A DNA stretch of 13,866 nucleotides from Candidatus Eiseniibacteriota bacterium (GCA_031370785.1 JANMQY010000020.1:1-13866); one strand, 5' to 3'; counted from the stretch's first letter, positions 2,482 to 13,865 are shown. Made by a program: numbers and translations. Notes: generated by a model not told the origin, from the letters alone.

Positions 2482-2650
2482 TTGATGTGGCCATCGACTA
2501 GCCCAGAGCGCGCTCATTCGCAAGCCCGGCGCCGCTCCGCGCTTGCGCCGTGCCACGCGGAAAGAGTTAAATCCGCGCTTCGCATCCTGCCGATGAAGCC
2601 GCCGGCCCCGGCCGCGCGGAAATCCGCGATCGCCTCTGAGGAGACACCCG

Positions 2651-3661
2651 ATGAAGGTTGCCGTGCTCATGGGCGGCCGGTCCGCCGAGCGCGAGATCTC
2701 GCTGCGCACGGGCCGGGGTGTCGCGCAGGCACTGCGCAATCTCGGGCACGAAGTGACCGCGGTGGACGCGGCCAACGGCCGCCTGCTCCCGGCCGGGGAG
2801 GAAGAGCGCGCCGCGCTGCCCTCGACCGCGCTCGAGCCGGCGGGCGAGGCGGCACTGGTGCGTCCCGAGGTGCTGGCGGGCGCCGACGTCGTGTTCCTCG
2901 CGCTGCATGGCGCCGCCGGCGAGAACGGCACGCTCCAGGCGCTCCTCGATCTGACCGGCAGGCCCTACACCGGCTCGGGCATGCTCGCGAGCGCGCTCGC
3001 CATGAACAAGGCGATGGCGAAGAAGATCTTCGTACAGGAGGGAATTCCGACGCCGCGCTGGCAACTGGTCGCCGCGAACGCCACCGCCGCGGATGTCGAC
3101 GTCGCTTCGGTCGGCGGTTTTCCGCTGGTGGTCAAGCCGAACGAAGAGGGCTCGAGCGTCGGCCTCACCATCGTCGAGGCTGCTGCGGGACTGCCCGCGG
3201 CGCTGCGCCTCGCCGGCCAGCAGGATCAGGAGATCCTGGTCGAGGAGTTCATTCCCGGACGCGAGCTGACCGTCTCGGTGCTGGGCGATGAAGTGCTGCC
3301 GATCGTCGAGATCCGCCCGAAGAGCGGGCTCTACGACTACGAGTCCAAGTACACTGCGGGGCGCAGCGAGTATTTCTGCCCGGCCGATCTGCCCGCGCCT
3401 GTCGCAAAACGGGTGAACGATCTCGGCCTTCGCGTCGCGAAGGCGCTGGGCTGCCGCGGCGCGAGCCGCACCGATTTTCGACTCGACGCCGCGGGCAAGG
3501 CGTGGTGTCTCGAGCTGAACACGATTCCGGGCATGACCCCGACCAGTCTGGTGCCGATGGCCGCGAAGGCGCGCGGCATGAGCTACGACCAGCTGGTGGG
3601 ACGCATGCTCGAGCTGGCGATCGCCGATTCGCGGCGCCGCGGGGCGAACACGCCGCGGTGA
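2651..3661 (+). CDS. ddl: D-alanine--D-alanine ligase
   Basis: Motifs VAVLMGGRSAEREISL, LHGAAGENG, VVKPNEEGSSVG, YDYESKY and ELNTIPGMTPTSLVP; RBS GAGGAG upstream. Confidence 0.96.
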   Translation: MKVAVLMGGRSAEREISLRTGRGVAQALRNLGHEVTAVDAANGRLLPAGEEERAALPSTALEPAGEAALVRPEVLAGADVVFLALHGAAGENGTLQALLDLTGRPYTGSGMLASALAMNKAMAKKIFVQEGIPTPRWQLVAANATAADVDVASVGGFPLVVKPNEEGSSVGLTIVEAAAGLPAALRLAGQQDQEILVEEFIPGRELTVSVLGDEVLPIVEIRPKSGLYDYESKYTAGRSEYFCPADLPAPVAKRVNDLGLRVAKALGCRGASRTDFRLDAAGKAWCLELNTIPGMTPTSLVPMAAKARGMSYDQLVGRMLELAIADSRRRGANTPR

Positions 3662-3688
3662 GCCGTTGACCTTTCTCGAGGAGAACAC

Positions 3689-4750
3689 ATGGATGCCACT
3701 CAGAAATTCCTGAAGGAGCTGGTGGAGGCGCAGGGCGCCCCCGGCTTCGAGGGCGACGTCGCCAAGGTGATGGAGAGCTTCCTCAAGGGCGTCGGCCCGA
3801 TCTCGCGTGATCGCCTCGGCAGTTTCATCTGCGAGAAGAAGGGCAGCACCGCCACTCCGCGCATCATGCTCGCCGGCCACCTCGACGAGGTCGGATTCCT
3901 GGTCAAGTCGGTCACCAAGGAAGGGTTCGTCAAGTTCCTGCCGCTCGGCGGATGGTGGGGACACGTGGTGCTGGGCCAGCGCCTCGTGATCAAGACCCGC
4001 AAGGGTGACGTGCTCGGCGTGGTGGGCTCCAAGCCGCCGCACGAACTGCGCGATGAGGACCGCAAGAAGGTGCTCGAGATCAAGGACATGTACATCGACG
4101 TCGGCGCGGCCGCGGACTGGGACGTGCGCACCAAGCTCGACATCCGTCCCGGGGACGCGATCCTTCCGGTCTCGGACTTCACGCTGCTCGCGAACAAGAA
4201 CCTGATGCTGGCCAAAGCGTGGGACAACCGGATCGGCTGCGCGCTCGCCGCGCAGACCGCGAAAGAGCTCAAGGGCGTGGCGCATCCCAACACGGTGTTC
4301 GCGGTGGCCACGGCGCAGGAGGAAGTCGGACTGCGCGGCGCGCAGACTTCCGCGTTCAAGGTGCAGCCCGATGTCGGCATTGCGCTCGACGTCGGCATCG
4401 CGCACGACACGCCCGGCACCGAAGGTGACGAGAAGCTCGGCGGCGGCCCGCTGGTGGTGGTGTACGACGCGACCTCGATTCCGAATCGCGGCTTGCTCGA
4501 CCTGGTGACCGACACCGCGAAGAAGCTGAAGATCCCCCTCCAGTTCGAATCGGTGGAGCGCGGGGGAACCGATGCCGGCCGCATCCACATGACCGGCCAG
4601 GGCGTGCCGTCGATCTCGATGGGCGTGGCCGCGCGCTACATCCACAGCCATGTGAGCATCATCGATCGCCGCGACTTCGACATGACGGTCAAGCTGCTGG
4701 TCGCGCTGGTGAAGCGGCTCGACCGCAAGACCGTGGATCGGCTGATCTAG
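3689..4750 (+). CDS. M42 family metallopeptidase (TET-like aminopeptidase)
   Basis: Metal-binding and catalytic motifs GHLDEVG, KAWDNR, QEEVGLRGA, ALDV, GGTDAG and RYIHS; RBS GAGGAG. Confidence 0.93.
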   Translation: MDATQKFLKELVEAQGAPGFEGDVAKVMESFLKGVGPISRDRLGSFICEKKGSTATPRIMLAGHLDEVGFLVKSVTKEGFVKFLPLGGWWGHVVLGQRLVIKTRKGDVLGVVGSKPPHELRDEDRKKVLEIKDMYIDVGAAADWDVRTKLDIRPGDAILPVSDFTLLANKNLMLAKAWDNRIGCALAAQTAKELKGVAHPNTVFAVATAQEEVGLRGAQTSAFKVQPDVGIALDVGIAHDTPGTEGDEKLGGGPLVVVYDATSIPNRGLLDLVTDTAKKLKIPLQFESVERGGTDAGRIHMTGQGVPSISMGVAARYIHSHVSIIDRRDFDMTVKLLVALVKRLDRKTVDRLI

Positions 4751-4810
4751 CTTCGCGCCGCGCCGCCGGAGCGGACCCGGTTGGCCGCGGTGCGATGGGG
4801 AGCCGCCCTG

Positions 4811-5716
4811 ATGCTGCTCGTCACGCAGACGCCGCTGAGCTTTCCCGAAGGGGAGAGGCTGCTCGAGATCGGCGCGCGCATCGCCATCACGCTGCTGATG
4901 GCATGGCTCGCCCAGCGCGGACTGTTCCTGCTGATCGCACGCTTCGAGAACCTGCCGCTGCGCCGCGGGGACCTGAGCGTGCACGCGCAGCAGCGCGCGC
5001 ACACACTCGGGCAGATCGTGCGCAGCATGGTCGTGGTGCTGGTCGGCGCGATCGCGTTCGTGCACATCCTCGATGTGTGCGGCTGGGACGTGAAGCCGCT
5101 GCTCGCGGGCGCGGGCATTCTCGGAGTTGCGCTCGGATTCGGCGCCCAATGGCTGATCCGCGACGTGATCGCCGGTGTGTTCATCCTGCTCGAGGACCAG
5201 TTCGCGGTCGGGGATCTCATCGAGATGGACGGGCGCGCCGCGACGGTCGAGGAGATCTCGGTGCGCTCGACGCGGCTGCGCGACTTCAACGGCTACGTCC
5301 ACTTCGTGCCCAACGGCTCGATGAAGACGGTGACGAATCGCAGCCGCGGATGGAACCGGCTCGCGGTCGACGTGCCGATCGATCCCAATGACGACGCCGA
5401 GCGTGCGCTCGAAGCGTGCCGCCACGTGGCGGAGGAGATGAATGCCGATCCGGCGTGGAAGGATCGGCTGCTCGAGCCGGTCCAGCTGTGGGGCATCGAA
5501 CAGCTCGACCCCACCTACCTGCAGATCCGGCTCGCGCTGCGCGCCCGGCCCGGAGCCGACACCGCGGACGCCGCGCGCGAGCTGAGGCGGCGCGTGCACC
5601 GCGCGCTGACCGCGGCCGGCGCGCGCCTCGCGGGCGGAGTGCCGCGCGCGCTGTCGCAGGCGGTGAGACCGCAGGAAGCGCTGGACGAACCCGACGCCCT
5701 GGAGAGGCCCTCGTGA
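4811..5716 (+). CDS. Small-conductance mechanosensitive channel (MscS family, YbiO-like)
   Basis: N-terminal hydrophobic helices; LLAGAGILGVALGFGAQWLIRDVIAG..ILLEDQFAVGD; VEEISVRSTRLRD..G.VHFVPNG. ATG 4811 follows GGGGAG (alternative TTG at 4781). Confidence 0.92.
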   Translation: MLLVTQTPLSFPEGERLLEIGARIAITLLMAWLAQRGLFLLIARFENLPLRRGDLSVHAQQRAHTLGQIVRSMVVVLVGAIAFVHILDVCGWDVKPLLAGAGILGVALGFGAQWLIRDVIAGVFILLEDQFAVGDLIEMDGRAATVEEISVRSTRLRDFNGYVHFVPNGSMKTVTNRSRGWNRLAVDVPIDPNDDAERALEACRHVAEEMNADPAWKDRLLEPVQLWGIEQLDPTYLQIRLALRARPGADTADAARELRRRVHRALTAAGARLAGGVPRALSQAVRPQEALDEPDALERPS

Positions 5717-7104: not shown

Positions 7105-7154
7105 ACGGGGGCCCGTCCGGACCCCCACCCGGAACCCCCAGATCAAACAATGGC

Positions 7155-7184
7155 TTGACCCGCCCAAACTCAGAGGACTAGCCT
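7155..7184 (+). promoter_or_regulatory. Candidate sigma70-type promoter for the small secreted protein/TPR activator operon
   Basis: TTGACC (7155-7160), 18-nt spacer, TAGCCT (7179-7184), in the intergenic space after cysS. Confidence 0.5.
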
Positions 7185-7333
7185 GAATGTGCACTTCCGG
7201 GGCGTATACGTCTTCGCGGGGGGCTCACCCGTATCCTTCCCACCCTCCCACTTCCCGCGAATCGGCTGACAGGTAGTGCAGTCGGACCGGCGCTTCGTCG
7301 GTCCAAGTGGACCAGGGAACAGGAAAGGGCTTC

Positions 7334-7663
7334 ATGCTTCGATTCGCGAAGAATCGTGGGTGGACCTTCATCCTCGCGCTGAGCCTCATCTTCGCATCCG
7401 CTGGCACGCTGTCTTCCCGCGCCTTTGCTGATGGCGGGTCGATCCTGCCAGGTGAACCCGCGCCAGGTGGCACGCCCGGAACCGGAATCGGTGACCCCGA
7501 CAATCCGACCGGAAAGTCGCTGCGGCCTCGCGGACGGATGCAGGCTGAGAGCTCAACGTACCGTTCGCGCGCCGTGGGTGACGGTAGCGGTTCGGGAAGC
7601 GTGTGGATGTTGCGTCTCCAGGTCGTGCTTCAGGCCCTGCGGTGGATGACCATCCGCTTCTAG
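7334..7663 (+). CDS. Small secreted hypothetical protein (109 aa), candidate signalling-peptide precursor
   Basis: Purine-rich RBS AGGAAAGGG before ATG 7334. Signal peptide with basic n-region, hydrophobic core and AFA cleavage motif (MLRFAKNRGWTFILALSLIFASAGTLSSRAFA). Gly/Pro-rich mature part with GIGDPDNP, and a hydrophobic/amphipathic C-terminus WMLRLQVVLQALRWMTIRF. Confidence 0.75.
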   Translation: MLRFAKNRGWTFILALSLIFASAGTLSSRAFADGGSILPGEPAPGGTPGTGIGDPDNPTGKSLRPRGRMQAESSTYRSRAVGDGSGSGSVWMLRLQVVLQALRWMTIRF

Positions 7664-7703
7664 GCTTTGAAGTCGCGACATCGTCTATGACCGGAGTTTC
7701 GGC

Positions 7704-10106
7704 GTGTCGAAAGACGACCGGAATGTAATCGCACATCTTGAGGAGCGGCTGGCGCAGAGCCCGGATCCGTCCGGCGACGCGCTTGCCGAGCTCGAGATGC
7801 TTGCGGATCTCTATATCCAGGCGGACAGCCACCTGCCCGCGCTGGAGACGATCGACCGTCTGCTCTCGTTGCCTGCCGCGCGGACCCTGTCCGTAACCCG
7901 CCGTGCGGCGCTCGAGAGCAAGGCGATTTCGTGCCGCATCGCACAGGGCCAGGTTCAGGCCGCACTGGCCCAGGTTCGCGAAGTGCTTCAGCGCGAGTCC
8001 ACGATCGAGTCGCCGCAGGTGCGCTCGCGCCTGCATCTGCAGTGCTCGGCCGCTCTGTTCCAGCTCGGTCGGCTCGTCGAGAGCCGCGAGAGCGCGAGCC
8101 AGGCGCTTGGTCTCGCCGACGTCTGCGGGGACCTGGCGCTCTCGGCCCAGGCCATCAACTATCAGGGCCGCACGCTGTATCGCGAGGGTGATCTGGCCGG
8201 GGCGCGCGATCACTACGAGCACGCGCTCGCGCTGTATCGCCGGGTGGGCGACGAGGCCAGCAGCGCGCACCTGCGCAACAACCTCGGTCTCATCCACAAG
8301 AATCTGTGCGAGTGGGAAACGGCGGCCGCGCATCTCACCGCGGCGCTCGAGATCCATCGCGCGGCGTCGCGATTCGGCGAGGCCGGCTACCCGCTGATGC
8401 ACCTCGGGATCGTCTACCAGAAGAGCGGCGACTGGACCCGCGCTCAGGAACACTACGTCGAGGCGGAGCGGGTGTTCTCGCAGGTCGGAGATCAGCTGGG
8501 TCTCGTCCGGACCGGGATCGGCCTTGGCAACATTGCGAGGCTGCAGCGCCGATTCAGCGACGCCGAGACCCTGCTGCTCGCCGCCCTCGAACGCGCACGA
8601 GTGTGCGGCGCACGGCGCGAAGAGGTGCTGGCCATGGAGTTCCTCGGCGAGGTCGACTTCGACCGCGGTCGGGCCCCTCATGCAATCACGCGCTACGACG
8701 AAGCGCTGCCGATGGCCGAGCGCATCGCGCCCGAGGGCGACCTGGTGGTCGAGCTCGAGCGCCGTCGCGCCGAGGCCCTGCTCGCGACCGGGCGGCTCGA
8801 CGATGCGGAAGTGGCGTGCGCGCGCGCGCTGCGGCTGGCGCGTGCGACCGATGATCGGCTCGAGCACGCCGTGGCGCACCGGGTGGCGGGCGACATCGCC
8901 GCGGGGCGCGGTCGACGCGAAGAGTCGACCGAGCTGTGGAGGTCCGCGGCGCTGCTTCTGACGCAGTGCCGCGAACGTCTGGAGCTGGGCCGCACCTATC
9001 TTGCGCTCGGTCGCGCGACCGAGGATCCGCGCGAGGCGCGGCGTCACCTGTACCTGGCTGGCGGGCTGTTCTCCGAGCTGGGAAGCGCCCACTGGCTCGA
9101 ACAGTCCGAGTCCGAGCTGCAGCGCCTGCTCGGTCCGACGGACCCCGCGCCGATGCGTCCCGCATCACTGCTCGGCCGGCGCCACCGTGCGCCGAGCCTG
9201 GTGGCCTGCTCGGGCGCGATGTACCGGGTCGAGAGCCTGGCGCGCCGGGCGGCGATGACCGAGCTGTCGGTGCTGATCACCGGCGAAACCGGGACCGGCA
9301 AGGAGCTGGTGGCGCGCACCATTCACTCGCTGTCGACGCGCGCCCAGCGGCCGTTCCTCGCGATCAACTGCGGCGCGCTGCGCGCAGACCTCGCGCTCTC
9401 TCAGCTGTTCGGGCACCGCAAGGGCGCGTTCACCGGGGCGCACGCCGAGGGCATCGGTCTGGTCGAGGCCGCGCACGGCGGCACGCTGTTCCTCGACGAG
9501 GTCGGAGAGCTTCCGCACGACGTCCAGGTGACGCTGCTGCGCTTCCTCGAGAGCGGCGAATACCTGCGCCTCGGCGAGACCCAGGTGCGGCGCGCGGACG
9601 TGCGCATGATCGCGGCCACCAACCGCGAGCTGCGCGGGGACGCCGGTGAGCGCGTGTTCCGCCGCGACCTGCTGTTCCGCCTGAACGAGATCGAGATCCT
9701 GGTGCCGACGCTCGCCGATCGGCTCGACGACGTGGTGCCGCTGGCGCGCCACTTCCTCGCGTTTTACGGCGGGATCGATGGCCCGCGCCTCGCCGCCGAC
9801 GCCGAGGCCGTGCTCACCTCCTATGCGTGGCCCGGTAACGTTCGAGAGCTCGAGAACGTCATGAAGCGCGTGGCCGCTCTGCACTCGGGCGACAGCCTGG
9901 TGGACGCAGATGCCCTGCTGCCGTTCCTGGCGCATCCGCCGCTGCGCACCAACGGCGACGTGGCGCTGGCGAGCGACGAGCGAAGCGCCATCCTCTCGGC
10001 GTACCGCGAGGCGCACGGCAACAAGAGCCGGGTAGCCGAGCTGCTGGGAGTGAGCCGCAAGACGCTCTATGCGCGCATCCGCCGGCTCAACATCGATCTG
10101 CACTAG
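7704..10106 (+). CDS. Sigma54-dependent enhancer-binding protein with long N-terminal TPR region, AAA+ domain and Fis-type HTH
   Basis: About 480 aa of TPR-like helical repeats (e.g. [54 protein letters not shown]). Walker A GETGTGKE, intact GAFTGA, Walker B FLDEVG and [11 protein letters not shown]-terminal [24 protein letters not shown]. No receiver or GAF domain is recognisable. GTG start after GGAG. Confidence 0.93.
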
Positions 10107-10132
10107 CCGCGCGAACCCAGGCACATCCAGTC

Positions 10133-10167
10133 GACGGGCGGAAAGTTCCTCCGCCCGTTTTCTTTTT
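10133..10167 (+). terminator. Rho-independent terminator of the activator operon
   Basis: GACGGGCGGA (10133-10142), 7-nt loop, TCCGCCCGTT (10150-10159), followed by TTCTTTTT. Confidence 0.85.
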
Positions 10168-10199
10168 CCGCGCGCGCGTCCGATCGAGCCGGCGAGGAG

Positions 10200-10300
10200 T
10201 GTCACCCTGTCACCCTGCGGGTAACACTGTCACACCTTGCGCTGGCCCTGCGCGTTGCCGCATCTCGCCGGGCGCGCGAGTGTTACCTGCGATGGTGACA
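10200..10300. promoter_or_regulatory. Candidate enhancer (UAS) sites for the adjacent sigma54 activator
   Basis: Inverted repeats TGTCACC-N5-GGTAACA (10208-10226) and TGTTACC-N6-GGTGACA (10281-10300), plus extra TGTCAC half-sites at 10200 and 10228. They lie about 120-220 bp upstream of the -24 element. Confidence 0.7.
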
Positions 10301-10366
10301 ACCCCCTGACGAGATGCCGCGCCCGTCGGCCTGCGCGAACCCGCCGACACGCGATTCGACCAATGA

Positions 10367-10379
10367 AATCAGTGGTCTG
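10367..10379 (+). promoter_or_regulatory. IHF-like site between enhancer and sigma54 promoter
   Basis: AATCAG-TGGT-CTG is a one-mismatch match to WATCAR-N4-TTR, at the position typical of sigma54 promoters. Confidence 0.4.
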
Positions 10380-10418
10380 CAGCACATCGCGAGCGCCATT
10401 CATTCGCCGCCATCGCGC

Positions 10419-10434
10419 TGGCACGCCGCCTGCT
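10419..10434 (+). promoter_or_regulatory. Sigma54 (RpoN) -24/-12 promoter
   Basis: TGGCACG-CCGC-CTGCT, with GG (10420-10421) and GC (10432-10433) separated by exactly 10 nt. Predicted transcription start is near 10445. Confidence 0.88.
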
Positions 10435-10444
10435 CTAGTGACGA

Positions 10445-10934
10445 TCCGGATACGGGAATCGGCTGACTGCGACAGGGAAGGCCGATTCAGATGGTCGAGG
10501 TTCTCCTGGGGGAGGAGGACCTTGAAACTCGGGCGATCAAGGCGTAGATCGGCACCTCCATCGGCGCCTCTGGTCGCCCGAGAGAATTTTCAGGCTGAGT
10601 CAAGGACTGAAGTGCACGGCATGCCGTGCGGGGCTCGTACCCTCACAGTCAGTCGAGTTTGGAATCGGAAACGGGCAGTCGTCTTGCCCCAGCTCGTGCC
10701 TCCGGCAGCGTCGAGAAGCGTCGGCGCATCAATGCGAAAGGGGTGAGAGCAACTCCAGTTCATCAGCCAGTGCAGTCTGGTGAGTAGTGGTTCGCAAACC
10801 AAAAAAACCAAATACGCCCGGTCAACGAAGCCGGGAGCACAGTGGGGTTCATCCCGGTCACTCCCTGTGCTCTCGGGAGAAGGCAGCCAGAGTTCCGAGC
10901 CCGATGGGCTCACGAATCTCTTGGCTGCCTTTTC
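10445..10934 (+). ncRNA. Putative large structured non-coding RNA (or very long structured leader) transcribed from the sigma54 promoter
   Basis: Back-to-back stems at 10456-10488, 10495-10525, 10528-10582, 10614-10629, 10673-10689, 10760-10783, 10789-10800, 10833-10874 and 10877-10934, several with G-U pairs favouring the + strand. No ORF with credible codon usage. I do not recognise the family. Confidence 0.6.
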
Positions 10935-11014
10935 AATTGATGAGCGCGACCGGGGCGAACCCTGATAACCTGTGGCCACCGTCGCCCCCTGGACCCGGTT
11001 ACGAAGGAGCCACC

Positions 11015-11518
11015 ATGAAATCCGCTCGCCCTGTCGCCAAGTTCGCCGCACTGCTGGTATCGGTCACGCTGGTCTATGCTGCGTTCACCGCCTGCTCCAA
11101 GAAGGCCGAGCCGCCCGCGGACACGAGCGGATCATCGACAACGACCACAACCACGACCACGACGCCTCCGTCTTCCGACGCGACCCCGCCCGCGGGCACG
11201 GGCACATCGGGCACGTCCGGCTCGACCGATGCGAGCGCGGTCACCGCGAATCTTGAGCTGGGCGAGCAGGTATACAAGCAGCGCTGCGCGCTCTGCCACG
11301 GTCCGGACGGCCATGGCAATGGCCCCGGCGCGGCGGCGCTCAATCCCAAGCCGAGGAATTACCACGACGCCAAGTACATGAGCACGAAGACCGACGCGGA
11401 GCTGCTCGCCGTCATCCACAACGGCAAGGGCGCGATGCCAGCGTGGAAGGCTATCCTCAACGAGACGCAGATGAAGTCGGTGCTGATGTACGAGAGGACG
11501 TTCGCGGGCAAGCCTTGA
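11015..11518 (+). CDS. Monohaem class I cytochrome c lipoprotein with Thr/Ser/Pro-rich linker
   Basis: RBS GAAGGAG before ATG 11015; lipoprotein signal ending FTA-C; low-complexity STTTTTTTTPPS linker; haem motif CALCH; distal Met in GAMPAW. The 10787 start in the ORF track is too long. Confidence 0.9.
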   Translation: MKSARPVAKFAALLVSVTLVYAAFTACSKKAEPPADTSGSSTTTTTTTTTPPSSDATPPAGTGTSGTSGSTDASAVTANLELGEQVYKQRCALCHGPDGHGNGPGAAALNPKPRNYHDAKYMSTKTDAELLAVIHNGKGAMPAWKAILNETQMKSVLMYERTFAGKP

Positions 11519-11691: not shown

Positions 11692-11720
11692 TTGACACCC
11701 CAGTGAGCGATGACTATCTT
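11692..11720 (+). promoter_or_regulatory. Sigma70 promoter of the tRNA-tuf operon
   Basis: TTGACA, 17-nt spacer, TATCTT, followed by a GC-rich discriminator, 32 nt before tRNA-Thr. Confidence 0.85.
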
Positions 11721-11752: not shown

Positions 11753-11825
11753 GCTGGCGTAGCTCAATTGGTAGAGCATCTCATTTGTAATGAGGTGGTT
11801 GGGGGTTCGAGTCCCTTCGCCAGCT
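11753..11825 (+). tRNA. tRNA-Thr(TGT), CCA not encoded
   Basis: Acceptor stem GCTGGCG/CGCCAGC, D arm AGCTCAATTGGTAGAGC, anticodon loop TT-TGT-AA, T loop GTTCGAG. Confidence 0.95.
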
Positions 11826-11870
11826 ATGATTGCCCGCTGTCGGCCGCCCCGTCGCGGCACTCGAACGGTA

Positions 11871-11956
<86 letters not shown>

Positions 11957-11980
11957 TCCTTTTGCGCAGTATTGATTTGA

Positions 11981-12056
11981 GCGGGAATAGCTCAGTGGCT
12001 AGAGCGTCAGCCTTCCAAGCTGAGGGTCGCGGGTTCGAATCCCGTTTCCCGCTCCA
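11981..12056 (+). tRNA. tRNA-Gly(TCC)
   Basis: GCGGGAA/TTCCCGC acceptor stem, TCAGC-CT-TCC-AA-GCTGA anticodon arm, GGTTCGAATCC, ends TCCA. Confidence 0.97.
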
Positions 12057-12185
12057 TTTTCATCTGTCCCGGGCCCGATTGGCGCGGCTGCCATGCGGAT
12101 CGATGCTCCGGGGAATCCGGCGGGCCGGATCCCTGAAAGCAAGTGTCAGGCCCGCCTTAAATCCGCGCGATAGAAGATTTTCCCG

Positions 12186-12214
12186 TTGACACCCCTCGAA
12201 CCGAGCCATAGATT
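12186..12214 (+). promoter_or_regulatory. Internal sigma70 promoter for tRNA-Thr(GGT) and tuf
   Basis: TTGACA, 17-nt spacer, TAGATT, then the GC-rich discriminator CCCGGG. Confidence 0.8.
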
Positions 12215-12382
12215 CCCGGGCTCGCACCCAGCCCCGACGACCTTCGCAGTGTGAAAGTCGCCTCGGGGTAGTGCGTCTTGAGACCTCAGGACGCTGAGCC
12301 ACGTCTTCAAAGTCCGGTGCAGTACTCCAACACTGCGCGCCATCCGAGCAGTGCTGCCCACCTGGACGTCCCGGATGTCAAA

Positions 12383-12458
12383 GCCCACGTAGCTCAGTCG
12401 GTAGAGCATCTCCATGGTAAGGAGAAGGTCATCGGTTCGATTCCGATCGTGGGCTCCA
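12383..12458 (+). tRNA. tRNA-Thr(GGT)
   Basis: GCCCACG/CGTGGGC acceptor stem, TCTCC-AT-GGT-AA-GGAGA anticodon arm, GGTTCGATTCC, ends TCCA. Confidence 0.97.
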
Positions 12459-12671
12459 GTGTGCGCGCGCGCGCGGATGCACCAGGCGCAAGACGGTGCC
12501 ACTCGGTTCAGGCTGGAGACGGCGCGCGTGTGACGCGACGCGGCCTGAGACTCGTGAACAGGTAGAAGAACAGGCTGGAACGCACCGAACCGGGCCTTGC
12601 GCCCGGCCCTCGAAGGCGATGAAACCGGAAGCATTGAAACCGAAAGCACGCAAAAACAGGAGCCTCAGGAA

Positions 12672-13865
<1,194 letters not shown>

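Follow-up and report, generated by a model that had tools for sequence, protein, structure and literature searches.

A TPR-type sigma-54 activator, a small exported protein and a conserved structured RNA: a candidate regulatory unit in Candidatus Eiseniibacteriota

Sigma-54 activators that drive a neighboring RNA gene are known from a few Proteobacteria; those compared here, LuxO, CbrB, and QseF, belong to phosphorelays and carry a receiver domain. LuxO is phosphorylated, and its Qrr RNAs are about 100 nucleotides (nt) long and Hfq-dependent; CrcZ, the RNA of the CbrB system, carries A-rich repeats. In Bacillota, the RRNPP receptors (Rap, NprR, PlcR, PrgX) place a cytoplasmic tetratricopeptide repeat (TPR) sensor beside the gene for a small pro-protein with a signal peptide. 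Parts of PMC6296734 describe CbrB as a two-component response regulator whose targets extend to many other genes (61). Parts of PMC6075780 describe the lipoprotein QseG as acting on the kinase QseE, at the periplasmic loop of QseE; QseE in turn phosphorylates QseF, and in this way the exported protein governs the activity of the activator. Here, we compare with these systems a locus of an uncultured soil bacterium, Candidatus Eiseniibacteriota bacterium (GCA_031370785.1 JANMQY010000020.1:1-13866; the whole 13,866-nt stretch of GC-rich DNA is called the window below) in which genes for a small exported protein and for a TPR/sigma-54 activator are followed by a structured non-coding RNA. The explanation that we favor overall, and consider reasonably probable, is a self-contained sigma-54 unit with this one RNA as its only direct output.

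An initial annotation, made from the sequence alone, had proposed one contiguous block: a gene for a 109-aa secreted protein 40 nt upstream of an enhancer-binding protein whose only sensory region is a TPR array, then a terminator, paired palindromic enhancers, an IHF-like site, a near-consensus −24/−12 promoter, and about 490 nt of hairpins without a credible open reading frame (ORF). Every element was found in its place (Table 1), the IHF-like site alone being confirmed in part. The annotation also supposed that the small ORF and the promoter with its structured RNA would be syntenic with orthologous activators, and both halves of this expectation held in related genomes. Orthologous loci were retrieved in two independent ways, by the activator protein (20 loci) and by the invariant motif of the RNA over 185,579 species genomes (71 loci). 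All 71 motif-retrieved loci, nearly all of them from Eisenbacteria, carry an activator ortholog (46–81% identity) directly upstream on the same strand. A strict promoter lies 183–456 nt before the motif in 70 of them, and the last has a one-base variant, CGGCAC. In the protein-retrieved family loci, the promoter pattern TGGCA[CT]G-N4-nTGC was present downstream of the activator in 20 of 20 cases. Homologous loci reside almost entirely in records titled Candidatus Eisenbacteria.

A covariance model of the RNA, searched over 151 genomes of the class, matched 35 of the 39 genomes in family f1, all four in family f3 (3/3 without the unpublished genome G026), and none of the three in family f2; the other families searched gave a single weak match (E 2e-4). 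The range of the RNA is that of the full-length orthologous activator (f1 and f3). There is one copy per genome except in G012, which has two, each beside a copy of the activator. The G012 copies are full modules of small protein, activator, and RNA (contigs C3, ~1223600–1227276, and C6, ~891226–894850), and in one of them the activator match is split into two pieces.

Upstream of the promoter, palindromes of the form TGTYAC-N6-9-GTRACA hold fixed positions across loci, at about −210 and −139 from TGGCAC. At least one strict palindrome occurs in 73 of 91 loci (duplicates included), and the remaining loci have half-sites at the same offsets. Within the whole 3.44-Mb assembly, which is rated 100% complete, the pattern has two matches, both at this locus; strict −24/−12-like matches number 182. 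A promoter that recurs in 70 of 71 independently retrieved loci and a palindrome confined to this one place put the elements beyond coincidence. Because the palindrome is found genome-wide only at this promoter, the activator looks dedicated to it. No correctly spaced −24/−12 element was seen upstream of the small gene by eye in 7105–7333, where no scan was run. The IHF-like site has two mismatches to the consensus WATCAANNNNTTR in this genome, and a site with at most one mismatch is present in only 13 of 73 unique loci, mostly at −51/−52 or −64. What stands of this element is a positionally conserved AT-rich bump at −70 to −40 (AT fraction 0.46–0.51 versus ~0.3), rather than the match to the consensus. 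Judged from the conserved sequence arrangement, the activator likely drives the RNA.

The activator itself has a recognizable motor and an unusual front end. Pfam places TPR_12/TPR_2 repeats in the N-terminal part, Sigma54_activat (PF00158) at 501–665 (E 9.7e-61), and, on the C-terminal side, AAA_lid_14 and HTH_8 (759–794); it reports no receiver, GAF, or PAS domain, leaving the TPR array as the only sensory region. NCBIfam matches are confined to the AAA+/HTH part and fall far below every equivalog cutoff. In an alignment of 40 orthologs (A2), G527, T529, G530, G532, K533, G574-A575-(F576)-T577-G578-A579, and D598-E599 are invariant or nearly so, and the Walker A, GAFTGA, and Walker B residues are intact. 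Because of this near-invariance, the ATPase motor should be active. The genome has a single Sigma54_DBD match, RpoN (E 7.3e-63), and the activator used as a query gave 19 matches, most probably other enhancer-binding proteins. The attributes of a sigma-54 enhancer-binding protein are found together: the motor, a helix-turn-helix (HTH) domain with upstream sites (binding being predicted), RpoN, and a −24/−12 target promoter.

AlphaFold2 models residues 1–485 with high confidence (predicted local distance difference test (pLDDT) 94.1, predicted TM-score 0.88) as 25 helices, equivalent to about 12 TPR repeats. By sequence, the best solved relatives of this region are Pins/LGN (E 2e-12), and RapH is the sole RRNPP protein among the sequence matches listed (E 0.84). 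By fold, LGN/Pins and OGT superhelices lead the Foldseek search, with TM-scores normalized to the target of up to 0.82, and no RRNPP receptor appears among the 40 fold matches listed, to rank 50, where other eukaryotic superhelices are also found. The initial view of the TPR domain as RRNPP-like gained no support from these comparisons. Several of the matched LGN/Pins entries are, by their titles, complexes with peptide partners.

The RNA folds far more stably than expected by chance, with a minimum free energy of −237.8 kcal/mol (z = −6.58) that none of 100 shuffled sequences equaled. For comparative analysis, the 91 loci were reduced to 73 distinct RNAs of 295–528 nt by dropping 16 exact duplicates along with L045 and L084, whose terminators were not found by the script. 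Coding potential was rejected, as no reading frame is conserved over the invariant core; ORFs of at least 40 aa occur in 13–25 of the 73 sequences per frame (median 0). None of 4227 Rfam models matches within 10100–11000 at E ≤ 1, so that no homology to a described RNA family of the Qrr, CrcZ, or GlmY type emerged. The A-rich repeats of CrcZ are not among the conserved motifs of the Eisenbacteria RNA. Housekeeping RNAs (6S, RNase P, tmRNA, SRP) likewise have no Rfam match at the locus, and ARAGORN found no tmRNA there. Identity with 6S RNA was rejected, 6S being encoded elsewhere (contig C125, 75.5 bits).

Covariation carries the structural argument. RNAalifold gives the 3′ core 21 pairs, of which 15 show compensatory changes; in this core, 95.1% of alignment cells are paired versus 39.5–52.9% with slid partners, and 117 cells are changed on both sides versus 14–46 in the slid controls. 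Not one of 500 shuffles reaches any of the observed measures. The core hairpin (helices 2 and 3) contributes 11 pairs, 10 changed on both sides, with ~92% of cells paired, and the terminator helix (helix 4) contributes eight pairs, five changed on both sides, with 98.4% of cells paired and a conserved T-run. Conservation stops at this terminator, beyond which the next gene varies between cytochrome c and tRNA-Thr. Toward the 5′ side, helix P1, recovered by RNAalifold from 61 long-form sequences (eight nearly invariant pairs, 87–100% canonical), joins the 5′ end to a strand ~190 nt downstream and encloses covarying hairpins. A short-form clade, whose activator is ~47% identical, forms a local hairpin from its 5′ bases and misses the enclosed domain, and for this reason the extra 5′ domain looks like an insertion into the P1 loop. 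The CCUCC loop GCACCUCCAUC is confined to long-form RNAs and is missing from the short-form clade and L021.

The single strands are conserved more stringently still. Segment S1 has 20 bases that are invariant in 73 of 73 RNAs except for the bracketed U in Table 1 (≥90%), and the CCCGGUC in the loop of the core hairpin is invariant in 73 of 73. The retrieval pattern had fixed 24 invariant bases (17 in S1) in L021–L091; the protein-retrieved L001–L020, obtained without the motif, show the same invariance. By eye, GGGGUGA (10740–10746, in a conserved block) is complementary to the UCAUCCC loop (10851–10857) and could form a pseudoknot, both sides of which are too conserved for a covariation test. 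The placement of the RNA resembles that of Qrr, CrcZ, and GlmY: a unit bounded by a sigma-54 promoter (with a deduced start) and a terminator, adjoining the gene of an activator.

Public metatranscriptomes provide limited information on expression. Seven runs share words with 9900–11300, and four of these were aligned to the region. Two of these, from one study (X1 and X2), yield contigs of ~11–12 kb from a ~92% alike relative that cover everything and are uninformative on transcription. An rRNA-depleted rhizosphere run of a second study gave eight short contigs, all within 10496–10867, and a run of a third study gave a single contig at 10660–10819. These contigs carry neither strand nor ends, DNA can be present in RNA libraries, and gaps in the coverage by X3 and X5 do not indicate silence; the contigs hint only weakly that the RNA is the region's abundant product.

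At the N-terminus of the small protein, which is positively charged, a hydrophobic helix is followed by an A-x-A site at −3/−1, and in an alignment of 40 orthologs (A3) the A-x-A site precedes the mature start in nearly all. As predicted from these features, the N-terminus is a standard cleavable Sec signal with a signal peptidase I (SPase I)-type site, in line with the secreted protein initially annotated. An AlphaFold2 model shows helices at 3–23, corresponding to the signal, and 87–108, the rest being disordered (mean pLDDT 64). The middle is rich in Gly, Pro, and Asp, and the C-terminal helix is amphipathic, rich in Trp and Arg, and usually ends in RF or HF (RF here). G53, D54, P55, and D56 are the sole invariant residues of the A3 alignment. 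The flanks of this GDPD motif diverge quickly, with a mean column identity of 31% for the protein as against 64% for the TPR domain. Pfam and NCBIfam offer no family for it, and its nearest Atlas clusters consist solely of hypothetical proteins from Eisenbacteria. In the same genome (G000), contig C74:45021–45323 (minus strand) gives a weak second match to the small-protein profile (E 0.008).

A GDPD-bearing ORF with a signal peptide was located upstream in 56 of the 61 loci that include the activator start, using a crude ORF caller that took a longer wrong-frame or truncated ORF in the other five. Each of ten distant TPR activators (33–38% identity), drawn from six genomes belonging to other families, is preceded by a small signal-peptide ORF; nine of these ORFs carry a G[DG]PD motif, and four of the ten activators have TGGCACG-N4-ATGC 137–262 nt downstream. 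Strong matches to the small-protein profile occur only beside orthologous activators, and many weak ones lie beside paralogous activators. Because the small ORF accompanies both orthologous and distant paralogous activators, the comparison indicates that the pair has stayed together through gene duplication and deep divergence. In three f2 loci (L096, L098, L100), TGGCACG-N4-ATGC lies ~250–260 nt after the stop of a paralogous TPR activator and is followed by a shared stretch unlike the RNA studied here, which may be a second family of sigma-54-driven RNA.

These observations can be assembled into a mechanism, whose steps from promoter to RNA rest on comparative evidence. The TPR enhancer-binding protein would bind the two palindromes, ~210 and 139 nt upstream, through its Fis-type HTH domain; the AT-rich IHF-like stretch would probably assist DNA looping, and the AAA+/GAFTGA motor would open the RpoN-bound TGGCAC-N5-CTGC promoter. 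Transcription would then run ~490 nt to the conserved intrinsic terminator. The predicted product is a folded RNA comprising P1, an optional inserted domain with the CCUCC loop at its tip, an A-rich linker, the 20-nt near-invariant strand, the covarying hairpin with a second CCCGGUC in its loop, and the terminator. Such an RNA is probably a trans-acting regulator and may act through its C-rich single strands, most likely by Hfq-free pairing with G-rich translation starts of mRNAs and less likely by titrating a protein. On the input side, the TPR superhelix would take the place of a receiver, with a protein or peptide partner, not phosphorylation, switching the activator. The leading candidate for this partner is the exported GDPD protein encoded alongside, either a fragment of it or its not-yet-exported precursor, although its action could also be indirect or absent altogether. 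Direct action of the small protein on the TPR domain is conceivable, yet we rate it as rather unlikely.

Several observations weigh against this picture. Exact complements of at least 11 nt to four conserved RNA segments number 10–110 per segment genome-wide, the longest being 14 nt, and none falls at a credible start; RNAduplex, run with three or four RNA segments against 4506 start regions, returned no outlier and remained at chance level. The start regions were roughly called (a filter on GC content at third codon positions, then the first start with a Shine-Dalgarno-like motif), such that a real target may be missed. The duplex of S1 with the start region of the activator (−20.7 kcal/mol) ranks only 178th of 4506, and GACCGG at about −15 of the activator start is present in 36 of 62 loci and varies elsewhere, whereas the RNA motif is invariant. 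P1 and the invariant segments can show no covariation, since their sequence never varies. The transcription start near 10445, the strand of the RNA-library contigs, and RpoN dependence are inferred. The mature small protein should be outside the cytoplasm, and the activator has no membrane segment.

How the RNA acts bears on two competing explanations. The conserved single strands are C-rich (CCUCC, GCCCGG, UCCCGG), and their likeness to C-rich-loop RNAs such as mycobacterial 6C, as described in parts of PMC6486639, points to pairing without a chaperone at G-rich translation-start regions. No Hfq was found in this genome, rated 100% complete. One specific partner could be the activator mRNA, where TGACCGGAG has seven bases complementary to the CCGGUCA motif of the RNA, making feedback on this mRNA a weak possibility. 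Pairing with the degP/htrA leader was also considered and is unsupported in this genome (ranks 767–3102 of 4506). Because the target scans stayed at chance, a protein-decoy role in the manner of CsrB/RsmZ or CrcZ is conceivable, though we regard it as unlikely. The invariant CCCGGUC, present once in a single strand and once in a hairpin loop, would suit such a decoy, as would the failure of any mRNA target to stand out among the start regions, the single CsrA gene in the genome, and the length of 295–528 nt, which is long for a bacterial regulatory RNA. Nevertheless, the ~10 GGA triplets in 490 nt are what base composition leads one to expect by our own count and estimate (made with no statistical test), none of the conserved motifs is a GGA loop, the 5′ GGA gives way to another sequence in the short form, and no candidate binding protein was identified; a CsrA sponge was rejected on the first two of these points. 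Far less probable is a cis-acting role as a leader, whether riboswitch or attenuator, for the cytochrome c or tRNA–tuf genes downstream. The RNA does lie directly upstream of the lipoprotein cytochrome c gene (11015–11518), and a cytochrome c match follows in 36 of 71 related loci by our own row count. Against this, the RNA ends in a conserved covarying hairpin with a U-run in related sequences, conservation goes no further, and the next gene elsewhere is tRNA-Thr, ahead of which a sigma-70-like promoter lies in this window (11692–11720).

The role of the small protein divides the remaining explanations. It may merely be co-transcribed, for instance as a component of the envelope or as one of the circuit's targets, with the TPR domain sensing another protein or a metabolite; we hold this to be possible but on balance unlikely. 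The expected compartments agree with it, the mature protein being periplasmic or secreted and the activator cytoplasmic, as do the many kinds of partner that TPR superhelices bind and, according to parts of PMC6075780, the exported protein of QseE/QseG/QseF, which acts through a membrane kinase and not on the activator. By contrast, the pairing persists down to 33–38% activator identity, across paralogs and in multi-copy genomes, which is unusual for functionally unlinked neighbors, and the window shows no kinase or other membrane-sensor gene between the two genes or next to them. The confident TPR superhelix, best fold matches that are complexes with extended peptides in the groove, and the mostly disordered small protein with its invariant motif favor the small protein as partner. 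Because the signal peptide exports the mature form, direct contact would need re-import or precursor sensing. Re-import defines an RRNPP-like quorum sensor, in which the small protein is exported and cut and the returning peptide binds the TPR groove, with the RNA as output. This we consider improbable, even though a signal-peptide pro-protein gene stands beside the TPR sensor in nearly all loci and in distant paralogs, the small-protein flanks diverge much faster than the TPR domain, and the fold matches are peptide-binding superhelices. The only RRNPP protein among the listed sequence matches was RapH, at an insignificant E value, and the listed fold matches held none; the effector is a C-terminal AAA+ domain, not an N-terminal HTH domain or a phosphatase; the window contains no peptide importer gene; and GDPD, common to all paralogs, resembles a processing or docking site rather than a specificity determinant. 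In a broader version, a two-membrane bacterium would follow a logic of Gram-positive style and read exported GDPD pro-proteins in the cytoplasm, as peptides or un-exported precursors, in the groove of co-diversifying TPR activators that each drive one sole RNA; such a signaling family, sensing peptides or the state of secretion, would have multiplied into several paralogous channels per genome in Eisenbacteria. We consider this proposal doubtful.

Table 1. Positions of the elements of the locus, counted from the first letter of the window
Feature	Position	Strand	Details
Small exported-protein gene, 109 aa	7334–7663	+	ORF with signal peptide
TGACCGGAG, just 5′ of the activator GTG; contains the likely ribosome-binding site	7688–7696	+	
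TPR/sigma-54 activator gene, 800 aa, GTG start at 7704	7704–10106	+	Pfam domains
Intrinsic terminator-like hairpin and T-run, end of the activator operon	10133–10159	+	10 pairs (7 G-C), then TTCTTTTTCC
Distal palindromic upstream activating sequence TGTCAC-N7-GTAACA	10208–10226	.	Further half-sites: 10200, 10229
Proximal palindromic upstream activating sequence TGTTAC-N8-GTGACA	10281–10300	.	
IHF-like site in a conserved AT-rich stretch between enhancers and promoter	10367–10379	+	
Sigma-54 −24/−12 promoter TGGCACgccgcCTGCT (TGGCAC-N5-CTGC)	10419–10434	+	
Non-coding structured RNA, ~490 nt	10445–10934	+	5′ end inferred from promoter; 3′ end at conserved terminator
Helix P1, 5′ strand GGAUACGGG	10448–10456	+	Pairs with CUCGUACC at 10634–10641; closes the 5′ domain
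Conserved loop GCACCUCCAUC, tip of a long covarying hairpin	10552–10562	+	Anti-Shine-Dalgarno-like core CCUCC
Single-stranded segment S1, AA(U)ACGCCCGGUCAACGAAG	10811–10830	+	A-rich run before
Core hairpin, long covarying stem	10831–10877	+	13-nt loop UUCAUCCCGGUCA with second CCCGGUC copy
Terminator hairpin GGCAGCC...GGCUGCC	10882–10934	+	Then UUUUC

Around this block, the upstream part of the window encodes two tandem NHL-repeat β-propeller proteins at its left end (374–1369 and 1401–2411, six NHL repeats each), ddl, an M42 peptidase, an MscS channel, and cysS. A 1010-codon open frame on the minus strand (2567–5599), antisense to ddl, the peptidase, and MscS and with no Pfam match, is almost certainly a high-GC artifact. 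Downstream, a 908-nt gap (10107–11014) separates the activator from the lipoprotein cytochrome c gene, after which come tRNA-Thr(TGT), tRNA-Tyr, tRNA-Gly, and tRNA-Thr(GGT) (11753–12458), then tuf (12597–13865). Many related contigs stop ~1.3–1.9 kb past the RNA motif, perhaps at tuf.

Set against the described systems, the locus has an output design of a known kind, that of LuxO-Qrr, CbrB-CrcZ, and QseF-GlmY. As parts of PMC4878744 and PMC10162802 describe it, Vibrio LuxO-Qrr also has a sigma-54 activator whose main direct targets are small RNA genes, with −24/−12 promoters and upstream activator sites; the Eisenbacteria locus differs in its TPR superhelix sensor, in an RNA of 295–528 nt with no Rfam match, and in a genome where no Hfq was found. 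Pseudomonas CbrB-CrcZ shares the layout, since according to parts of PMC6296734 and PMC8871633 it likewise has an activator gene, enhancers, a sigma-54 promoter, and, directly downstream on the same strand, a non-coding RNA of several hundred nt, but the present locus has neither kinase nor receiver and its palindrome is unique to one promoter. QseE/QseG/QseF-glmY of the Enterobacteriaceae, from parts of PMC6075780, likewise combines, in one locus, an exported envelope protein of small size with a sigma-54 activator and the gene of a sigma-54-dependent small RNA; the Eisenbacteria locus lacks a kinase, its activator has a TPR array where QseF has a receiver, and its small protein is marked by an SPase I-type site and a GDPD motif.

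The likeness to RRNPP systems is one of layout only: an adjacent gene for a small secreted pro-protein 40 nt upstream of the sensor, with no detectable sequence or top-ranked fold relationship, an AAA+ sigma-54 output domain, and a host that is probably two-membraned. For the sensor, the best structural match is the TPR domain of LGN/Pins (3ro2, 5a6c, 4a1s), which holds NuMA, Inscuteable, Afadin, or Frmpd peptides in its groove. LGN and Pins are eukaryotic polarity proteins with ~8 repeats, whereas the activator has ~12 fused to AAA+; the likeness concerns the fold and a possible binding mode. The initial annotation had taken the joining of RRNPP-like peptide sensing to a sigma-54/RNA output as undescribed. 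Literature searches outside subscription journals listed no paper in which an enhancer-binding protein of the TPR type senses peptides, and none about an Eisenbacteria RNA, and to that extent the claim stands; the joining of exported protein, activator, and RNA as such is already found in QseE/QseG/QseF-glmY, according to parts of PMC6075780.

Together, these comparisons place the output design of a few Proteobacteria in an uncultured phylum, where the input differs in being a long TPR superhelix accompanied by a small exported protein. Since the enhancer motif occurs nowhere else in the genome, the circuit seems to be closed, with a single sensor, a single promoter, and a single RNA, and is therefore unusually simple to reconstitute in E. 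coli. Should the exported protein indeed act on the TPR domain, it would provide a new link from the envelope or extracellular space to sigma-54 transcription and extend the list of sensor domains of enhancer-binding proteins. With its strong covariation and 20 almost invariant single-stranded bases, the 295–528-nt RNA is a candidate for a new RNA family entry. Compared with LuxO-Qrr, CbrB-CrcZ, and QseF-GlmY, what is new is the TPR sensor fused to a sigma-54 motor, the GDPD family of exported-protein partners, an RNA without described relatives, and an apparent one-promoter regulon.

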